DNA from: Kondoa subrosea
Lineage: Eukaryota
DNA: 64,000 bases
Direction of reading: 5' to 3'
Assembly (NCBI GenBank): GCA_039545335.1
Contig: BCIN01000001.1
Location: 798,208 to 862,207 of the forward strand
The translations under genes and the position numbers were made by a program. This document shows, piece after piece, positions 25,610 to 64,000 of the stretch; the first letter of the stretch is position 1; each line of letters begins with the position of its first letter. The notes below the pieces were generated by a model. It had not been told where the DNA came from, did no database searches, and worked only from the letters and a program-made list of their open reading frames with translations.

Positions 25610-27236
25610 TCAAGCATCGCCGGCCGAAGCAGTGTAAGCTTCCATCTCCGCATCCAGTTCAGCTTCAGTTTTCTGTTTGTAAAGACCAGCCAGATCAGAT
25701 CCAAGTCTGAAATTGTACAGGCGATCTACAAACCTGAGGTCTGCTTTCACCACCTCTTCTACCACCTCTGCCTCTTCCACGTTTCCCGCCTCTACCACCG
25801 CCGCTCTTGCGTTCAGTAGTACTGTACATTTAACAGGTACATCGTCATCAGTCACGAAACTGATTAGACTGAACTCCATAAACGTACGTTGAACCTTCAG
25901 CTTGTACGACAACCACAGGTGCAGCGGCCTTCTTTGGTGGTGCCAATCGAGATGAAAGAGGTGGAGGAGGTACGCGGGATGGGTCGACAATGATCTCAAT
26001 CTTCATCGGTCGTTCTATTCATGTTTCAATCGAGATTAGGTTGAATTTGATATTGATGTAAGATGGGAGGAGAGATGTTGAGATATGGGACAGGGTTGAA
26101 GTGTAGTTGAAGGGATAGAGAGGTGGAGATGAAAGTTTGAAGTAATGTCGAATGGATGTGTAATTTGAGTTGTTGAGGGGAAATGTAATTGTAGTAGTAG
26201 TGAGAGAGTAAAGGGAAAAGGGCGAGAACGCAAAGTCAGATCGGGTTCTTCGTAGACTTTGAGAATTCGAGGGAGATGGAAATCGACATCACTTGAAATA
26301 TCAGAATAGCGCTCAAGGCTAAGCAAGTTTCCAACCATCTGCGAAAATGGAATGGGAATAGTCGTCATTACCACAAGGTAAAGCTTGCGATTAGACTGGC
26401 TGGAAAAGGCTTTGACAAGTTGACCAAGTCAAAGTCTTCAGAAGAGCTTGCTTGCGGTGAACAGATCGAATGTTCAGACTGCTTCTAATCCACCGACATA
26501 CTGTGCGACAGTACCGGACGAGCATAGCCAGATCCCAAACCGCGTGTCTTTGACCGCCCAAGCGGAAAAGGACGAGTAGAGCAAGCAGGAAAACCAAAAG
26601 GATCTAAAGAAGAATTACCACGAACTTTGATCGATGAGCCTGCCGTTGTAGTCGGCGTAGGCTTTTGCACCATCACCGGCTTTCCTGAATTCAATAGTCG
26701 CAATACCGGTAGGTTTGCCTTGGGAGTTGTATGCCATATGAAGAGTCTTGATCTGACCAATGGTTTGCTCAAAGAGATCCTTGAATAGACGTTTGAGTTG
26801 AAGGATTCACACAACGAGCAGACGCTTGTGAAGCGTGCGAAGAAAACTGACTTTGACCATTGCTTCGTTGACATCTTGAGGCAGGTTGCTGACCACAATC
26901 TTGGTACCATCACCAACGAGAGCTGCAGCAGGTGAAGGTACCATGACGGCAGCTACTGGTCGACCGTTAGAAGCGGGAGCAGCGCCTGCATATCTTCCTC
27001 TAGGATCGCTTGCAGAAGCAGTCCTTTTCAGGTTGCCTGCACCACCACGACCACGGCCTCTCTGGCTACCTTTCCTGCTGCCCTTCTTTGCGATGACCTA
27101 TTGTTTGACGAGAGATAAGGCAGTGCTTGTGGAATTCAGCGAGTTTGCAAGCCTCACTTCGTCGAGAGCGATATCAATCTGTTGCACTACTGATTAGCGT
27201 ATGCCGTCACTGTCTGCACTGTACACGCACATCCAT
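25610..27236 (-). CDS. YRA1: mRNA export adaptor Yra1/ALYREF (REF family)
   Basis: N-box MD|IDIALDE|V, an RGG region, RRM TKIVVSNLPQDVNEAMVK|DLFEQTIG...GIATIEF...YNGRLIDQ|KRPMKIEII, and C-box KTEAELDAEMEAY. Confidence 0.93.
26294..26375 (-). ncRNA. Candidate intronic box C/D snoRNA with two guides to 25S rRNA
   Basis: Minus strand shows box C-like ATGACGA (26368-26362), guide TCCATTTTC before D'-like CAGA, guide CTTGAGCGCTAT before box D CTGA (26304-26301), and an imperfect terminal stem TGtGGTA/TATTtCA. The guides are complementary to the conserved LSU segment GAAAAUGGAUGGCGCUCAAG (recalled sequence). Confidence 0.5.
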
Positions 27237-29487: not shown

Positions 29488-30099
29488 AGGACATCTTCAC
29501 AAGTACTTAGAAGTAGGCTGTAAGCCGAGGCAGAAGAGGTGTTATAGTATTGCATTGTTCAAGCATGATCTCGTACAGAAAGGGAGCAGATCGATACATA
29601 GAGCTTAGGGCGTGGACTATGTACAGTGTCATGTCGTAGAAATTTCATCGTCCGCTTATCACCCCAACTTCTAATCTCGAGAGACCGGTGACTTCTTGCT
29701 TCAACACTACCGTTTCTAGTTGCAAAGGTCGTCACAGATTTACAGCGGAAGCAATCCTAGAAGCTGCTCCACCGATAAAACGCGAGCTGTGTTCCGACCC
29801 AAACTCGGCTATTTATTGGATTCACAATCCAATTGACACTTGAAGCGCTGCAAGCACGACTCTCTGAGCAGTACTACTCCTTATCAGTACTCCGTGTAAG
29901 CTGTGCTTTGTGCTCTGAACGTGCAGTGCTGACGTTCTCGCTATTCCCTTTCTCCATCTATCTACATTCTGAATACTCGCTGCTGCTTGCTTCCTATTTC
30001 ATATTATCTCGCAACATGGTCTTCACACATTCAGAGTTATCGCCTGGGCGCAACAACCTAGCATTAGATCCACCTTCTCTAGTCTCACAAAGCATAATC

Positions 30100-33000
30100 A
30101 TGGCTAACCGAGCCTCAGGTCTGAAGACTCCAGCAACGGAAACAGGCAATCACACGCCTAGTGTTGGAGGTCTGCGTCGTCAGATTGCCGGTCATAAAGG
30201 AACACTCAAGAAGCTGCTCGTTGCTAATCGCGGTGAAATCGCTATTCGTATCTTGTGAGCAGAGGCTCTTTGATACTTCGATTCGAAGTTCACGAGTGGT
30301 TTCCTGCTTCACAGCCGAACTGCTCATGAATTGGCTATGCAAACTGTCGCTATCTATTCTCACGAAGATCGTTTTTCAGCTCACAGAAACAAGGTGCGTA
30401 GGAAAGGCAAGCTGAGCGAATGACGCTTATTTGGCTTTCACAAACGGCACAGGCGGATGAAGCCTATCTTGTTGGAAAAGGATTAACTCCGGTTGCTGCT
30501 TATTTGGCGCAAGACGATATCATTAAGATTGCGCTTGAGAACGGAGTGGATATGATTCATCCAGGGTTCGCCAGCATGCTGCTTTGGCTATTTCTAGCTT
30601 AATCAAACCATGCTTTGAACAGATATGGTTTCCTTTCCGAAAATGCCGAATTCGCAAAGAAGGTTGAAGATGCGGGCATTGCTTTCATTGGTCCGCAGCC
30701 AGAGATTATTGATGGCTTAGTAAGTCTCTTGGTCTCGTTGCGCAGAATCAGCTGATGTGCCAATGATAGGGAGACAAAGTCAAAGCTCGTACTGCTGCTA
30801 TCAAATACGGAGTCGCTGTTGTACCTGGTACGGACGGCGCAATCGAGAACATCCAAGAAGCGGAAGCTTTCATCAAAGAAGCAGGTTTCCCAGGTATCTC
30901 TCTTCATTCCTAATCTATTGGCAGTCTGATTTAGCCCTTTTTTCTCCGCAGTCATCATCAAGGCTGCAATGGGTGGAGGAGGCAGAGGTAAGCACTCAAC
31001 GCGCTCTGACAATCTGCAAACTGAGACAACTATCCGACCAACAGGAATGCGAGTTGTCAGAAGTCAAGAAGAATTCGCCGAGGCCTTCCAACGTGCTACA
31101 AGTGAAGCAAAGGCAGCTTTTGGTGATGGAAGCTGCTTCATCGAGCGCTATTTGAACAAGGTCAGCGACTGGACCGTTTTGTTTCTTTGAGCAACTTAAC
31201 GCGTCTTGCGCTTGACAGCCTCGTCATATTGAAGTTCAGCTACTGGGTGATTCGTACGGAAATGTCGTCCATCTCTTCGAACGTGATTGTTCTGTACAAA
31301 GAAGATACCAGAAAGTAGTCGAGCAAGCTCCGGCCCCTGCTCTGGACGAAGATGTTCGCCAGCGCATTCTTGCAGACGCAAAAAAACTAGCAGGATCAGT
31401 TGGTTACAGAAACGCTGGTACTGCTGAATTCTTGGTCGACGATCAAAATCGACATGCTTTCATCGAAATCAACCCTCGTATCCAGGTCGAGCACACCATT
31501 ACCGAAGAAATCACGGGCATAGATATCATTGCTGCTCAAATTCAGATCGCTGCTGGTGCATCATTGACTGATCTTGGATTGACCCAAGAAGCGATCACCA
31601 AAAGAGGTTTCGCTATCCAATGCCGTATCACTACAGAAGATCCAGCCAACGGCTTTGCGCCTGACACCGGAAAGATCGAAGTATACAGATCTGCTGGTGG
31701 AAATGGTGTCCGTCTGGATGCCAGTTCAGGTTTCGCCGGTGCTCAAATTACTGTATGCCCTTCGCAACAAGTATAATAGACAGCTTCTGATAACATTTGC
31801 AGCCCTTCTACGACTCTCTTTTGGTCAAAGTCACTTGTCGAGGAGCGTAGGTTCAGTTCAATATTCCCTTTCTGCCGTTTGCTAACAATTGTCACACAGC
31901 ACTTTCGAAATTGCTCGTCGAAAGATGCTTCGAGCTTTGGTCGAGTTCCGCATCCGAGGTGTCAAGACAAATGTTCCGTTCTTGTTCCGAGTCTTATCCC
32001 ACCCTGTTTTCATCCGAGGTCAAACATGGACAACTTTTGTCGACGATGAACAGTCTCTCTTCGCTCTTGTCACCAGTCAAAACAGAGCTCAGAAAGTCTT
32101 GTCGTACTTTGGTGAGATGGTTGTCAACGGTAGTATGATCGCTGGCCAACAGGGCGAACCTGGTCTCAAGGAGGAAATTCCGGCTCCTGTTATTCCAAAT
32201 CCTGAAGATCTTACCAAAGCTCTGGATGTTTCTCAATCTTGCACAAAAGGATGGCGCAACATTCTCGTTGAGCAAGGACCTGAAGCGTTCGCCAAAGCTG
32301 TTCGAAACTACAAAGGCTGTTTGATCATGGACACCACATGGCGAGATGCTCATCAATCTCTCTTTGCTACTCGATTAAGAACAATCGATATTCTCAATGT
32401 TGCCAAAGCAACCAGTCATGCCCTTCAGAACGCCTTTGCACTGGAAGCATGGGGCGGGGCAACTTTCGATGTCGCGATGCGCTTCTTGTATGAAGATCCT
32501 TGGGAAAGACTCAAGGCTATGCGCAAACTTGTACCAAATATTCCTCTTTCAGCGCTCGTTCGAGGTGCAAATGCTGTTGGCTATACTTCTTACCCTGACA
32601 ATGCGATCTACGAGTTCTCGAAGAAAGCTGTCGAATGCGGTCTAGACATCTGTAAGCAAGAATCGATTCGTTCCTCTCGTATGAGCTAATACTGGACTCA
32701 GTCCGTGTCTTCGACTCGCTCAACTATCTTGAAAACATGAAGCTTGGTATCGACGCCGCTAAGAAAGCTGGAGGTGTTGTTGAGGCAGCAATGTGCTATT
32801 CTGGCGATGTGGCAGACAAGAAGAAGACCAAATATACTCTTCAATACTATCTCGACTTTGCGCAACAGCTTGTATGTACTTTCTGCTCTTAGTCAAGGAT
32901 CTGAAGCTGAATTAGATATGCAGGTCGATGAAGGTATCCATATTCTGGCTATCAAGGATATGGCAGGTTTGCTGAAGCCACAGTCCGCGACTATGTTAGT

Positions 33001-40966: not shown

Positions 40967-43900
40967 CTATGCGTTATCGACAGTAATTTGACTAGCATCC
41001 AAACCCAACGCTCTTAATAGTAGATTGGCATTGTTCTAATCGAGAAATATCAGCCTTCTGAAAAGAGCCGGGATATGATGAGACTCACGATTTTGAGTGC
41101 TCCAGCTTCTGGTGAGGTAGTTTTCCGACTAGCTGCTGTGACTAATTCCAGTACTTTCTCCCTTGCACTGAAAACAAGAGCTTGTTGCTGTTCCATATCC
41201 GAGCCAACTGCTAAGGCTGCCAAGAAGGACCACACAGGTTGATCTTGCAGATCGATATCTGGCCGCAAACCTGATCCAGTTGCCAAATATGGCGCAGCGC
41301 CAAAAGGCAGATTTGCAATAGCTCGAGTCGAAGGGAAAAGGTTTGGTATCTGATCTTGAAGTTTGCTGAAAAGATTGTTGAATACCACAGTCCTAGATGG
41401 CCTGGTCAGTATCGGACATTTTTAGTGATATTGAGCAACTTACCAATTCTGTAGTTCGTCTTCAGTTGGAGCAGGAACTTCTGGTGCTCCATCTCCAGCC
41501 TGTGCATTCTGCTTTAGCAACTCCGCTCGACTCAAGAACATAGTCAAGAAAGCTATTCCAGCTTTTGTTTGTGCAAGCTGAACAAGGTTGTTTCGTTCAA
41601 TCATTAGACCAAGCAGCCCGCCAACCATTCGAAGCGGCTGTTTGCTTAGCATATTCAAGAAAGGTGGGATGATAGTGCTGAGGAACAAGTCAGTCTCGTT
41701 TTCAAGATCTTTTGCTGTGCTGGAACTGGATTTATTCAATAGACTTGCTTGATCGAGAAGCGGTGCTTTGTGTACGACGTCGATTTGAGTGAAGGTAGCA
41801 ATCATAAGAGTGAAGAGAAGTAAAGTTTGTTGCTCGTTGATCTGTCGCAAGATTCTAGGAAGAAGCTTCTTGCCTTTTGAAGGTGCCAGAAGGGAAATGA
41901 AAGGATGAGGATTGCTGTGAGTACCGTGCATGAAAATTAGGAATATAATTGTTCATGAGCACATGTGAGCTCACCTGATGTCGACCGGTTCTCCAACCCG
42001 CAGATTTGTCCACAGAGATCTTAACAACTCGTCAAATTGCTGTTTCTTCGTTTCAAGCTCTTTGATCGAATCTTCAGCATCAGGTGCTCCACTTAATGCA
42101 TGAGCATTGAGGTGTGGTAGAGCACGTTTGAGCTGTTCCATCTCAAGAACAATATCGTAAAGCTTTTCGACAGAGACCAGAACTTTCCATCTAGATAGAG
42201 CTGGTTGTTGACCGGATGCATCATTCGTCGAAGCCAGACGAGCGAGTTTGGGTGCCGCTGAAGAAGCATCTGCTTCATTTGTTTTTTCAACTTGCAAAAG
42301 TTTCCTCGGTGCAGCTCGAGTGCGAATAGCGATCTTGCCCAAAGCACCATCAAGTGATACTGTGATACGTTTCAGAGCTGATTGGTAGTCTTTCAAACAT
42401 GCGAACTCACGCTGGGTAGCTCTTGGCTTCTTTCGAGCATCATCGACAATTCGTTGAACCTGTTGTGCCATCTTCATCATAGCCTGTTGTCTTCTCTTTC
42501 CACCAGTTTGCAATGCAGCTTGCTGTTGTTGCTGATTTCGAGCACCTCGAATCGCTTGGTAAACCGTATAATAGAAGTCGTTGATCAAAGGATCATGATC
42601 CCCTCCTGGACCTAGCGTATTGAGCAATTGACTAAGTTGGATACGAGTGATGAAGTCTTTCTCGCTCGTGGTCATTGCATTGTTGTGCGTTGCCATGGAA
42701 GCGATCTTGAGTCCTTTCCTTCTTCGACGAGCTTCTTCCTGTTCAGCTTGCATAATCATTGTTTCTAGTTGTTTCATGGCTTCATTGTTCTCAGCTGATG
42801 GGCGAGATATGAGATTGATCCGAAGAGCATGCATTTGACCCAGAGACATCTGTCCAGAGGGAGTTGGGCCATGACCTCGTTGAAAGACCTGAGGAACCAC
42901 AGGGCCTTGAGTTCCAAGAGGAGGAAACATCGCAGGATCGCCTCCGTCACGAAGCAATTGTTGGAACACCTCTTGCGTGACTTGTTGAGGTTGCTGCACT
43001 TGTTGCTGTTGAGGCTTCTGTGGAGATGCAGAGCGAGGCTGCATAGGAATGGGAGGAATCTGCTGATTTGGTAATGGCTGAGGAGCAGGCATTCGCATCT
43101 GGGATTGACGAGGTCCCATCTGCTGTTGAAATTGCTGAGGCATCATTCCAGGCGGTAATGACATTGGTGGACCCTGCATGAAGCGCATATTTGGATCATG
43201 CTGAGGAGGCATACCCATCGGAAACTGCATTTGCTGAGGAGGAGGTTGCGAGAACGTGCCAAAAGGGGAATTATTGCCTTGCATCATATTCTGCTGAGGC
43301 ATCTGGGGAGCGACTTGAGGTGAAGACGAGCGTCCTCGGAGCATCTCTGCTTCTATCTCTTCCAATGTCTTGTGAGTCGGACGTGCTGGCTGAGGGTGCT
43401 GAGGCTGAGGCGGACCGGCTGATACGGGCTTTGGTGATTGGCGAGTCGCAAACATTTCAGCTTCAATTTCAGCTAGAGTCTTATGTCGACTTTGCTGACT
43501 CGTTGGCACTGGTCTTTGAGCTGAGGCGGAGTTAGACTGAGCTGGTTTCGACATGCCACCTCCCAATAACGGATCAGAGTCCCATGATGAAGCATTCCAA
43601 GATGTCAAGGAAGGTTGATTAGACTGATGCGAAACTTGCGAAGGCTGAGATATAGGTTGTTCAGGCTGACCAGGAATTCGACCTCCAGTGCCAGAGAAAT
43701 CAAAATCACGTTGAACAGGCAAATCGCCGCCGAATGTATCGTCGTTGAGCTCATTGAGAGACTCATCCAGACCAACTACAAGCTGGACTCAGCTAATAGC
43801 CAGCTGTCGGTGAAATCACTTACGACCCGTCTCATCATTGAAGTCGTATATTTCTGTCAGTCGCAAACTTGGTGAGCTCTGTGTCAAGCGTGATTCTAGC

Positions 43901-61449: not shown

Positions 61450-64000
61450 TAGCACCTCCTATACAAGCAGAAGGAGGAACAGCAGCACAATCTAGCACGG
61501 CCAATCCTGATTCTTTGGCTTTGCCCGCAGCAAATCCAATAACCAATGATGCTTCGGAACCTACTTCACCTGCTTTGAGCAGATCTCCAAGTTTAATAAG
61601 AACCAGTCGATCTAAAACTCGTCAAGGAGAACTTGGTGCTATGGCTGGTTGCCCTTCTTTGGCTTACATGAGAAGCGAGTTATCTTTACTTGAAGACGGA
61701 GGAGGAAAGGGACAGAATGACTCAAGTAGTCAAAGAAAGATGGTCTTGGAATTGGCTGATGGGACAGCTTACGAAGGAATTGGATTCGGTGCTGAAGGAA
61801 AGAGCGTTTCTGGAGAATGTGTTTTCCAAACTGGTCTGCCTTATTCATGTTCATACACAAGTAGAGGATCTATGCTGAAATTTGTGATGGTGAAGGAATG
61901 GTTGGATATCCTGAATCACTCACAGATCCTTCCTATGAAGGTCAAATCTTGATCCTTACCTATCCCTTGATTGGATCTTATGGTGTTCCCGATCGTTCTT
62001 CTTTACTCAATTCCGAACAACTACCTGCCTATTTCGAATCTTCTCGAATTCATATCACCGCTTTAGTCGTCGCTTCCTATTCTGGAGAAGGATCTGACTT
62101 CTCTCATCATTTGGCTAAATCGGAATTAGGGACTTGGTTGAAAGAAGAAGGCATTCCTGCACTCTATGGTGTTGATACTCGTGCTCTTACCAAGAAATTA
62201 CGTCAAGGTGGTTCGCTCTTAGCTAAAGTATTGGCAAGAAAAGCTACTTCTGCCAGATCATTATCGACTCGCAAAGGTCCAAGAGGATGGGCAGAAGATT
62301 ACGCAGATATACCTATGCATGACCCAAATGTCGAGAACTTGGTAGCAAAAGTCTCAAGATCTCAACCTAGACTTTACAAACCCTCTGATCTGTCTTCCGA
62401 TATCAAAACACTTTTACATCCAGAAGGTCGACCACTTCGAGTTGTTGCAATAGACGTCGGTATGAAATACAACCAAATCAGATGTTTCCTGATGCGAGGT
62501 ATTGAATTGAAATGCGTCCCTTGGAATTACGACTTCACTTCCTCCAGCGAAGAAGCCTTCGACGGTCTTTTCATCTCCAATGGTCCAGGTGATCCAACTT
62601 CAGTACAAGAAACCATCAAACGTATTGCGACAATGATCGAAAGGGCTTCTGTACCCATTTTCGGTATTTGTTTAGGTCATCAATTGTTGGCTTTAGCTGC
62701 CGGTGCATCAACCATCAAAATGAAATATGGTAACCGAGGTCAAAATATTCCATGCACGGATTTGATTTCTGGAAGATGTTACATTACTTCTCAAAATCAC
62801 GGCTATGCTGTCGATACTTCTTCTTTACCTTCTGGATGGAAAGAATTGTTTGTAAATGCAAACGATGGTTCAAACGAGGGTATCTACTCTACAGAGAAAC
62901 CTTACTTTTCTGTACAATTTCATCCGGAATCTACTCCTGGTCCAAGAGATACTGAATTCCTCTTTGATGTCTTTATCAACAATATTGTTACCTTTAGAAA
63001 AGAAGGAAGATTAGTTCCTGTGATTATGCCTGGTGGTCTTGCTAAAGAAAACGCTGCGAAAAATCCAAGAGTTCATGTTAAGAAAGTACTCATCTTGGGA
63101 AGTGGTGGTCTTTCTATTGGTCAAGCTGGTGAATTCGATTACTCTGGCAGTCAAGCTATCAAGGCTTTGAAAGAGGAAGGGATCTATACTATTGTACGTG
63201 GTGGTGATGTTGTGCTGGTTCTCTGCTAGATCTTCACTGCTTCGTACAGCTCATCAATCCCAACATAGCAACCATTCAGACCTCCTCTGGTTTAGCAGAC
63301 AAAGTCTACTTCTTACCCGTTACACCTGATTTCGTTCGCAAAGTTATTCAACATGAGCGTCCTGATGGTATCTATGTCACTTTCGGTGGTCAAACCGCTT
63401 TGAACGTCGGTATCAAGCTCAAAGATGAATTCGAAGGCTTAGGGGTCAAAGTTCTTGGTACTCCAATTCAAACCATCATCACTACTGAAGATCGAGAATT
63501 ATTCGCAAACGCAATGTTGGAAATCAATGAACGTTGTGCTCAATCTGCTTCAGCTACTACTATTGAAGATTCCATCAAAGCAGCAGAGGAAATTGGTTAT
63601 CCTGTTATTGTCAGAGCTGCTTTCGCTTTAGGTGGTTTGGGTAGTGGGTTTGCTCAGAACACGCCTGAGTTGGTAGAACTTTGCACCAAAGCGTTCGCTA
63701 CTAGTCCTCAAGTTTTGATTGAGAAGAGTATGAAAGGCTGGAAGGAAATCGAGTACGAAGTCGTACGTGATTGCAGAGACAACTGTATTACGGTCTGTAA
63801 CATGGAGGTGAATATCTTATCTTGTCGTGATGAATTTGCCTTTTGACTTATGTGCATACAGAACTTCGATCCTCTTGGTATCCACACCGGTGATTCAATC
63901 GTTGTTGCGCCCTCTCAAACGCTATCGGACGCAGACTACAATATGCTTCGAACAACAGCAGTCAATGTCATTCGACATCTCGGAGTTGTCGGTGAATGCA
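61437..64000 (+). CDS. URA2: Multifunctional CAD/Ura2 (glutaminase fused to carbamoyl-phosphate synthetase), 5' part
   Basis: [45 protein letters not shown] and VQFHPE run directly into [29 protein letters not shown]. The fused architecture is the pyrimidine-specific type; the gene is truncated by the window end. Confidence 0.95.

Follow-up and report, generated by a model that had tools for sequence, protein, structure and literature searches.

A candidate box C/D snoRNA with two neighbouring 25S rRNA complements in a YRA1-type intron of Kondoa subrosea

U24/snR24 (SNORD24) is a short intronic box C/D RNA with two antisense elements directed at neighbouring sites in domain II of the LSU rRNA, namely Cm1437, Am1449 and Gm1450. 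A related layout is seen in snR75, snR76, snR70 and snR69, where the main guide is joined by a second element that pairs beside the target, comes from the other guide region and overlaps the first duplex by 1–2 nt; such extra base-pairing elements, as described by van Nues 2011, measure 4–11 bp, are often located in the other guide region, enhance methylation by as much as five-fold and were defined by conservation (PMC3116282). Two rRNA-complementary elements are likewise present in snR190, S. pombe snR107 and SNORD12, which pair with domains I and V of the rRNA, and the intronic snR107 is credited with roles beyond methylation (PMC11971394). With respect to hosts, snR59/snR39 in RPL7 and snR191 in NOG2 are described as residents of widely position-conserved fungal introns (Lim 2021, PMC8476143). 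The fungal snoRNA catalogue was seeded from five ascomycete surveys (PMC5824354) and a basidiomycete inventory found only 7 snoRNAs by means of Rfam (PMC5040776), so that guides specific to basidiomycetes constitute a blind spot.

In a 64,000-nt window of the genome of the basidiomycete Kondoa subrosea (contig BCIN01000001.1), we examined a box C/D-like element of ~80 nt on the minus strand (26375–26294), which lies within intron 4 of a YRA1/ALY-type gene. Like U24, it would be a C/D RNA of small size, encoded in an intron and equipped with a pair of antisense elements for neighbouring LSU domain II sites, but its predicted sites, G1311 and A1303 (numbering after L038, a 25S that resembles that of S. 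cerevisiae and has the U24 target C at 1437), lie 126–147 nt upstream of those of U24, and it has no Rfam match. With the extra base-pairing snoRNAs it shares a second element of matching dimensions (9 bp, with a 1-nt overlap between the duplexes, against 4–11 bp and an allowed 1–2 nt); it differs from them in its target, in that its second element abuts a D′-like box, as in that set is described only for snR69, and in being known from the sequence of one genome rather than by conservation (PMC3116282). Both of its elements fall within 25S 1300–1319, unlike the domain I and domain V pairings described for snR190, snR107 and SNORD12 (PMC11971394), with which it shows no sequence match. Its host specifies an mRNA export adaptor, whereas the RPL7 and NOG2 hosts (PMC8476143) are ribosome-related. 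The nearest LSU prediction listed for a fungus, Gm1338 of A. fumigatus Afu-513, lies ~29 nt downstream of G1311 after a 2-nt offset and belongs to an entry of 129 nt in an intergenic cluster (PMC2377427, Table 1).

The host gene (25610–27236, minus strand) is modelled with seven exons, and its spliced 234-aa product is open throughout, with an N-terminal box, an RGG region, a single RRM, a second RGG region and a C-terminal FoP-like box, an architecture shared by fungal homologs. The RRM matches PF00076 on one exon (E 2e-6), the match of the C-terminal box to PF13865 is weak (E 0.04 over 20 aa), ALY/THOC4 is among the PDB matches, not at their top (E 0.008), and the Protein Atlas returned only generic RRM clusters for this protein; named Yra1 homologs include those of Leucosporidium, Phenoliferia, Mixia, Malassezia and Kwoniella. 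The location in a YRA1-type intron proposed by the sequence-only reading is thereby borne out, with the candidate lying in intron 4 of a gene with Yra1/ALY layout, in sense orientation. This intron (26015–26625, minus strand), of phase 1 and 611 nt, with GTTCGT as its donor and a branch site near 26036, is the sole long one of the gene, the others being 52, 60, 72, 66 and 61 nt. Its junction is supported by a contig from a relative that runs the RRM exon directly into the next exon (X4 record 3), and a contig identical to the window, which by our guess represents RNA, is without intron 3 (X3 record 2). The X3 and X4 contigs contain none of intron 4 itself and so weigh neither for nor against the candidate. 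Towards the 3′ end of intron 4, a stretch of 191 nt that extends to the branch site (26040–26230, minus strand) is G-poor (2% G) and nearly unstructured. Elsewhere in the window we observed a PAT1 gene (41974–43788, minus strand), whose cluster was matched in the Protein Atlas, a URA2-type carbamoyl-phosphate synthase (61865–63843, plus strand), an exon of which is 62–69% identical to its best 120 matches, mostly from Agaricomycetes, and, at about 30000–32700 on the plus strand, what we take from the translations to be a pyruvate carboxylase-like gene.

At the start of intron 4 (26625–26612, minus strand), the weak donor GTTCGT is followed at a distance of 7 nt by another GT. Either use of this second GT or retention of the intron leads to an immediate stop, which upon retention is codon 146. 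Three related database ORFs end alike (SSW-stop or SPW-stop) and the first ~11 intron bases therefore look conserved; the intron start is possibly an unproductive-splicing switch. Intron retention in YRA1 is described as NMD-sensitive in C. neoformans (PMC5006051) and as NMD-linked in Y. lipolytica, and hemiascomycete YRA1 genes are noted for a long, poorly spliced intron (PMC2911113). Since YRA1 introns are thus long and retention-regulated anyway, the length of intron 4 speaks only weakly for a snoRNA within it. We also surveyed the intron position across ~165 proteins (149 homologs, 12 partly redundant cluster members and P0001–P0004). The end of the RRM was recognisable in 137, among which 62 continue as in the spliced product and 75 diverge at the intron 4 codon, 71 of the latter with S or R (phase-1 GT), while 22 of the 137 stop immediately at this position; named cases include Marasmius, Wallemia, Leucosporidium, Atractiella and Hermanssonia. 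Judged from these proteins, the position of YRA1 intron 4 looks old, and its maintenance fits a conserved cargo, as in RPL7 and NOG2, and autoregulation equally. Numerous YRA1 gene models from basidiomycetes break off or stray at intron 4 (e.g., P0170, P0221, P0128), an indication of non-consensus donors and widespread mis-annotation.

Re-reading of the minus strand recovered every box, guide and closing arm that had been listed for the candidate (26294–26375 with its closing arms; predicted mature RNA ~75–80 nt). Box C, ATGACGA (26362–26368), has one mismatch to RUGAUGA, at position 5, with both GA steps intact, and box D is a canonical CTGA (26301–26304); by inspection, the two would form a kink-turn core of tandem G-A pairs, a C-U pair replacing U-U, a G-C and an A-U. 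Directly upstream of box D, and separated from it by a single T, lies the D guide CTTGAGCGCTAT (26306–26317), and a single G likewise separates the second antisense element TCCATTTTC (26343–26351) from a D′-like box, CAGA (26338–26341). No convincing C′ box was found in the element by inspection, the best candidate being the poor TTGCTTA (26320–26326), which is without both GA steps, and the second element can fold back on 26340–26335 (−7.6 kcal/mol). The closing arms (26375–26369 with 26300–26294) form six of seven pairs by inspection (four Watson-Crick and two G-U, with one mismatch); this stem is absent from the minimum free energy fold, and the regional folding z-score is −0.69. As reported for the fungal catalogue, known snoRNAs match the RUGAUGA consensus almost perfectly and variants of the ATGACGA type are uncommon, and the terminal stem is missing in more than 40% of C/D snoRNAs (PMC5824354). 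A search with the Rfam 15 covariance models gave 0 matches at gathering, with only two irrelevant matches (E 7.9 and 9.3), and so places the element in no known family. Just upstream of box C there are two hairpins (26445–26370, minus strand; 120-nt windows with z-scores of −2.2 and −2.5 against 60 shuffles), which may act in processing or splicing. A 12-nt micro-exon entertained just upstream of box C (26383–26372) had no support whatever and was dropped.

The D guide forms 12 pairs (one G-U) with 25S 1308–1319, within the 10–21 nt required of the class, and the second element forms 9 Watson-Crick pairs with 1300–1308, both as computed on the rRNA of other eukaryotes and fungi (e.g., L027 and L038). 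By the +5 rule, counted on L038, the D guide points to G1311 and the second element, behind the D′-like box, to A1303, in agreement with what had been predicted. At −20.8 kcal/mol, the D guide duplex is the best site in the rRNAs tested, the next best beyond this segment reaching −13.5 kcal/mol, so the 12-nt pairing claimed for this guide holds as a unique and strong one. The adjacent 9-nt pairing holds as well on these rRNAs (−14.8 kcal/mol; with one bulge, and beginning at 26355, it reaches 1311). The two pairing cores share A1308 (a 1-nt overlap, which becomes 4 nt when they are extended) and jointly cover 25S 1300–1319. Insertion of an rDNA fragment was rejected as a source of these complements: compared with the antisense strand of the rRNA, the two pieces have exchanged places, and a box directly adjoins each of them. 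A third complement, of 10 nt (one G-U) to 25S 1312–1321, occurs in the same intron at 26564–26555 (minus strand), not adjacent to a box; matches this short arise at background level, as do the remaining rRNA complements of at least 10 nt in the intron, none of which adjoins a box.

The fungal LSU segment named in the sequence-only reading is real: it is present in the Rfam eukaryotic LSU consensus (model 1310–1333), the same target occurs unchanged in the S. cerevisiae 25S, and the exact 22-mer was found in at least 37 eukaryotic-contaminant loci of prokaryote assemblies, at least 35 of them with LSU context by eye, a count that gives no frequency because the scan queried the exact form. At three further eukaryotic loci the C of CUCAAG differs, which makes the last three D-guide pairs lineage-dependent. 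In the Rfam consensus structure the target stretch is drawn as a 19-nt linker (model 1314–1332), and 25S 1310–1315 can pair with 1171–1176 (−10.4 kcal/mol), a pairing that we take to be helix 41. The source of these loci is an observation of its own: at least 35 (L010–L046) represent eukaryotic rDNA contamination in prokaryote species representatives, one being a 24-kb contig whose rDNA units are arrayed in tandem and whose LSU is interrupted by a group I intron (L027, L031, L036); the plasmid sequences searched contained no eukaryotic rRNA. Human 28S Gm2050, once assigned from cryo-EM, is presumably at about the equivalent position to 25S G1311; a literature search for this name returned nothing relevant.

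The compared lists of guides and sites show a gap at this segment. The N. crassa table has a gap in its 26S targets from 1114 to 1418 (PMC2780460), the A. fumigatus list comes no nearer in the LSU than Gm1338 (PMC2377427), and the S. pombe high-confidence list has no entry at the equivalents of 1303 and 1311, its nearest being the equivalent of 1295, which is unconfirmed by mass spectrometry. For S. cerevisiae, the sources compared report no methylation at 1303 or 1311, and the sites given for Arabidopsis, tomato and tobacco include none between 1278 and 1377, an interval in which the candidate's sites would fall at ~1313 and 1321 (PMC11542601). A cross-eukaryote table, which does not map to exact positions, is empty for Ustilago and Cryptococcus between its Arabidopsis 1209 and 1374 rows (PMC3511168). 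The literature that we searched on YRA1/ALYREF as snoRNA hosts, on basidiomycete snoRNAs and on rRNA modification described neither this RNA nor the site and offered no basidiomycete rRNA modification map, and the name YRA1 is absent from the available text of PMC8476143, PMC8216456, PMC5640933 and PMC5040776; the family tables of the fungal snoRNAome may include a family with this target. The suggestion of the sequence-only reading that the snoRNA may be undescribed is thus consistent with the outcome of the Rfam search and with the N. crassa, A. fumigatus, S. pombe and plant lists.

Overall, we consider the element very probably a real snoRNA. For its precise function, we give an even chance to the reading that it is an undescribed intronic box C/D snoRNA that methylates G1311 and uses its second element for extra base-pairing. 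The latter role is more likely for the second element than that of a second methylation guide, because there is no clear C′ box and the target sites overlap. The RNA would be co-transcribed with YRA1, released once intron 4 is spliced out and debranched, trimmed to ~75–80 nt, and, as expected of the class, would be loaded with Snu13, Nop56, Nop58 and fibrillarin. Its D guide would then pair with 25S 1308–1319 and direct 2′-O-methylation of G1311, and the second element could serve on the A-rich 1300–1308 as a toehold that helps the guide to invade a strand otherwise paired with 1171–1176. Methylation of A1303 is possible on this reading and is not required by it. Several observations count against the extra base-pairing snoRNA: the variant box C, the weak closing stem, the failure to locate a homolog in the collections covered, the absence of methylation at the equivalent sites in S. 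pombe, S. cerevisiae and the three plants, the possible leniency of the chance models described below, the position of the second element beside a D′-like box, which the extra elements of van Nues 2011 other than that of snR69 are not described as having (PMC3116282), and the existence of long, retention-prone YRA1 introns for which the accounts report no snoRNA (PMC5006051, PMC2911113).

The sequence-only reading had called the candidate a double-guide box C/D snoRNA, of which the C/D anatomy and the strong D guide stand. A true double guide, forming Gm1311 from the D guide and Am1303 from the D′ guide, would have to act sequentially because the two duplexes overlap, and we regard it as rather unlikely. 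In its favour, exactly one base separates the 9-bp element from CAGA, as would be expected for the register of a guide, divergent C′/D′ motifs are reported to be capable of activity (PMC3116282), and U24 provides a precedent for the targeting of two neighbouring LSU sites (PMC11542601). Set against this are the lack of a recognisable C′ box, a pairing of only 9 perfect pairs and the potential sequestration of the D′ element in a hairpin, with the weak C′ and the fold-back arguing against a second active guide; moreover, the D′ element is not uniquely best at its site, comparable duplexes of −15.7 and −15.5 kcal/mol being available elsewhere in L027, and strict double guides are a minority of 8 among the 68 fungal families tallied (PMC5824354).

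The intron could also owe its length to regulation (Yra1 autoregulation by retention and NMD), with the element in it being either a chance look-alike or the decayed, unexpressed relic of a snoRNA. In a snoscan-like scan of both strands of the window against the 18S, 5.8S and 25S rRNA of L027, five C/D-like sites had a D guide scoring at least 9.5, and the candidate alone had a second adjacent element. We defined the paired arrangement by thresholds that are the candidate's own scores, as a D guide of at least 11.5 with a second box-adjacent element of at least 9 within 30 nt on the rRNA. Among 2,299 block-shuffled windows, there were 486 D guides of at least 11.5, 13 with a second element of at least 7 and one with at least 9; the real window (88 box-pair sites) searched against 17,074 decoy rRNA sets gave 3,307, 67 and four at the same three levels, and reversed and opposite-strand rRNA gave 0 paired arrangements. 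These nulls may be somewhat lenient, as three single guides of at least 11.5 are observed in the real window against ~0.2 expected. The resulting frequency of 2–4 in 10,000 per window is well below the rate that we would expect of real C/D snoRNAs in a fungal genome, and the element is intronic, on the sense strand and directed at an invariant core segment of the rRNA; yet with ~250,000 windows surveyed, some paired look-alikes were bound to occur.

Further points on the side of a look-alike or remnant are the variant box C, poor C′ and weak stem, which are features of snoRNA pseudogenes, the NMD-linked retention of YRA1 introns in C. neoformans and Y. lipolytica, and the outcome of the homolog searches, which located none in the viral, metagenome and prokaryote collections covered. 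The two-guide pattern had 0 loci in viral contigs and six in metagenome contigs, all attributable to chance and none with a placed C box or YRA1 exons; box C with the D guide had four loci in viral contigs, all by chance and within open frames of 84–372 codons. The RRM exon was found neither in viral contigs nor in any of 34 rDNA-contaminated prokaryote genomes, and a search of read-through gene models for the translated D guide and box D, which is of low power, gave no credible match. As these collections contain few fungal genomes, the blanks weigh little, and overall we judge a look-alike or remnant to be improbable.

A non-methylating rRNA chaperone of the snR190 type, which would cover the 1300–1319 linker and delay or order early 60S folding with little or no methylation, accords with the tiling of a continuous 20-nt stretch that Rfam draws as a 19-nt linker, with the absence of 1303 and 1311 from the methylation lists compared and with the 60S role of S. 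pombe snR107 described as separable from methylation, but is very improbable given that box D is canonical and the D guide stands exactly in +5 register to it, and given that snR107 and snR190 are described as pairing two distant domains, not adjacent sites (PMC11971394).

Taken at the level that the sequence supports, the locus probably represents a new box C/D guide family, hosted by a notable intron and aimed at a target not reported so far, and its mechanism would be an ordinary one. As its release would depend on the splicing of intron 4, Yra1 splicing would be tied to ribosome modification, as the sequence-only reading had supposed, and any Yra1 feedback would form part of this link. A bolder version, which we hold to be quite improbable, is that of an undescribed, basidiomycete-wide snoRNA family in the position-conserved YRA1 intron, the splicing of which is the gene's own feedback switch; the RNA would methylate and/or chaperone the 1300–1319 linker beside the GTPase-associated centre, and its output, along with a step of 60S maturation, would follow Yra1-controlled splicing. 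If true, such a family would couple the assembly of ribosomes directly to the capacity for mRNA export. The candidate may be one of the basidiomycete guides that fall in the blind spot of current catalogues, with a predicted site, Gm1311 and perhaps Am1303, that is absent from the lists compared, and a snoRNA cargo could explain why the position of this YRA1 intron has seemingly been retained across Basidiomycota.
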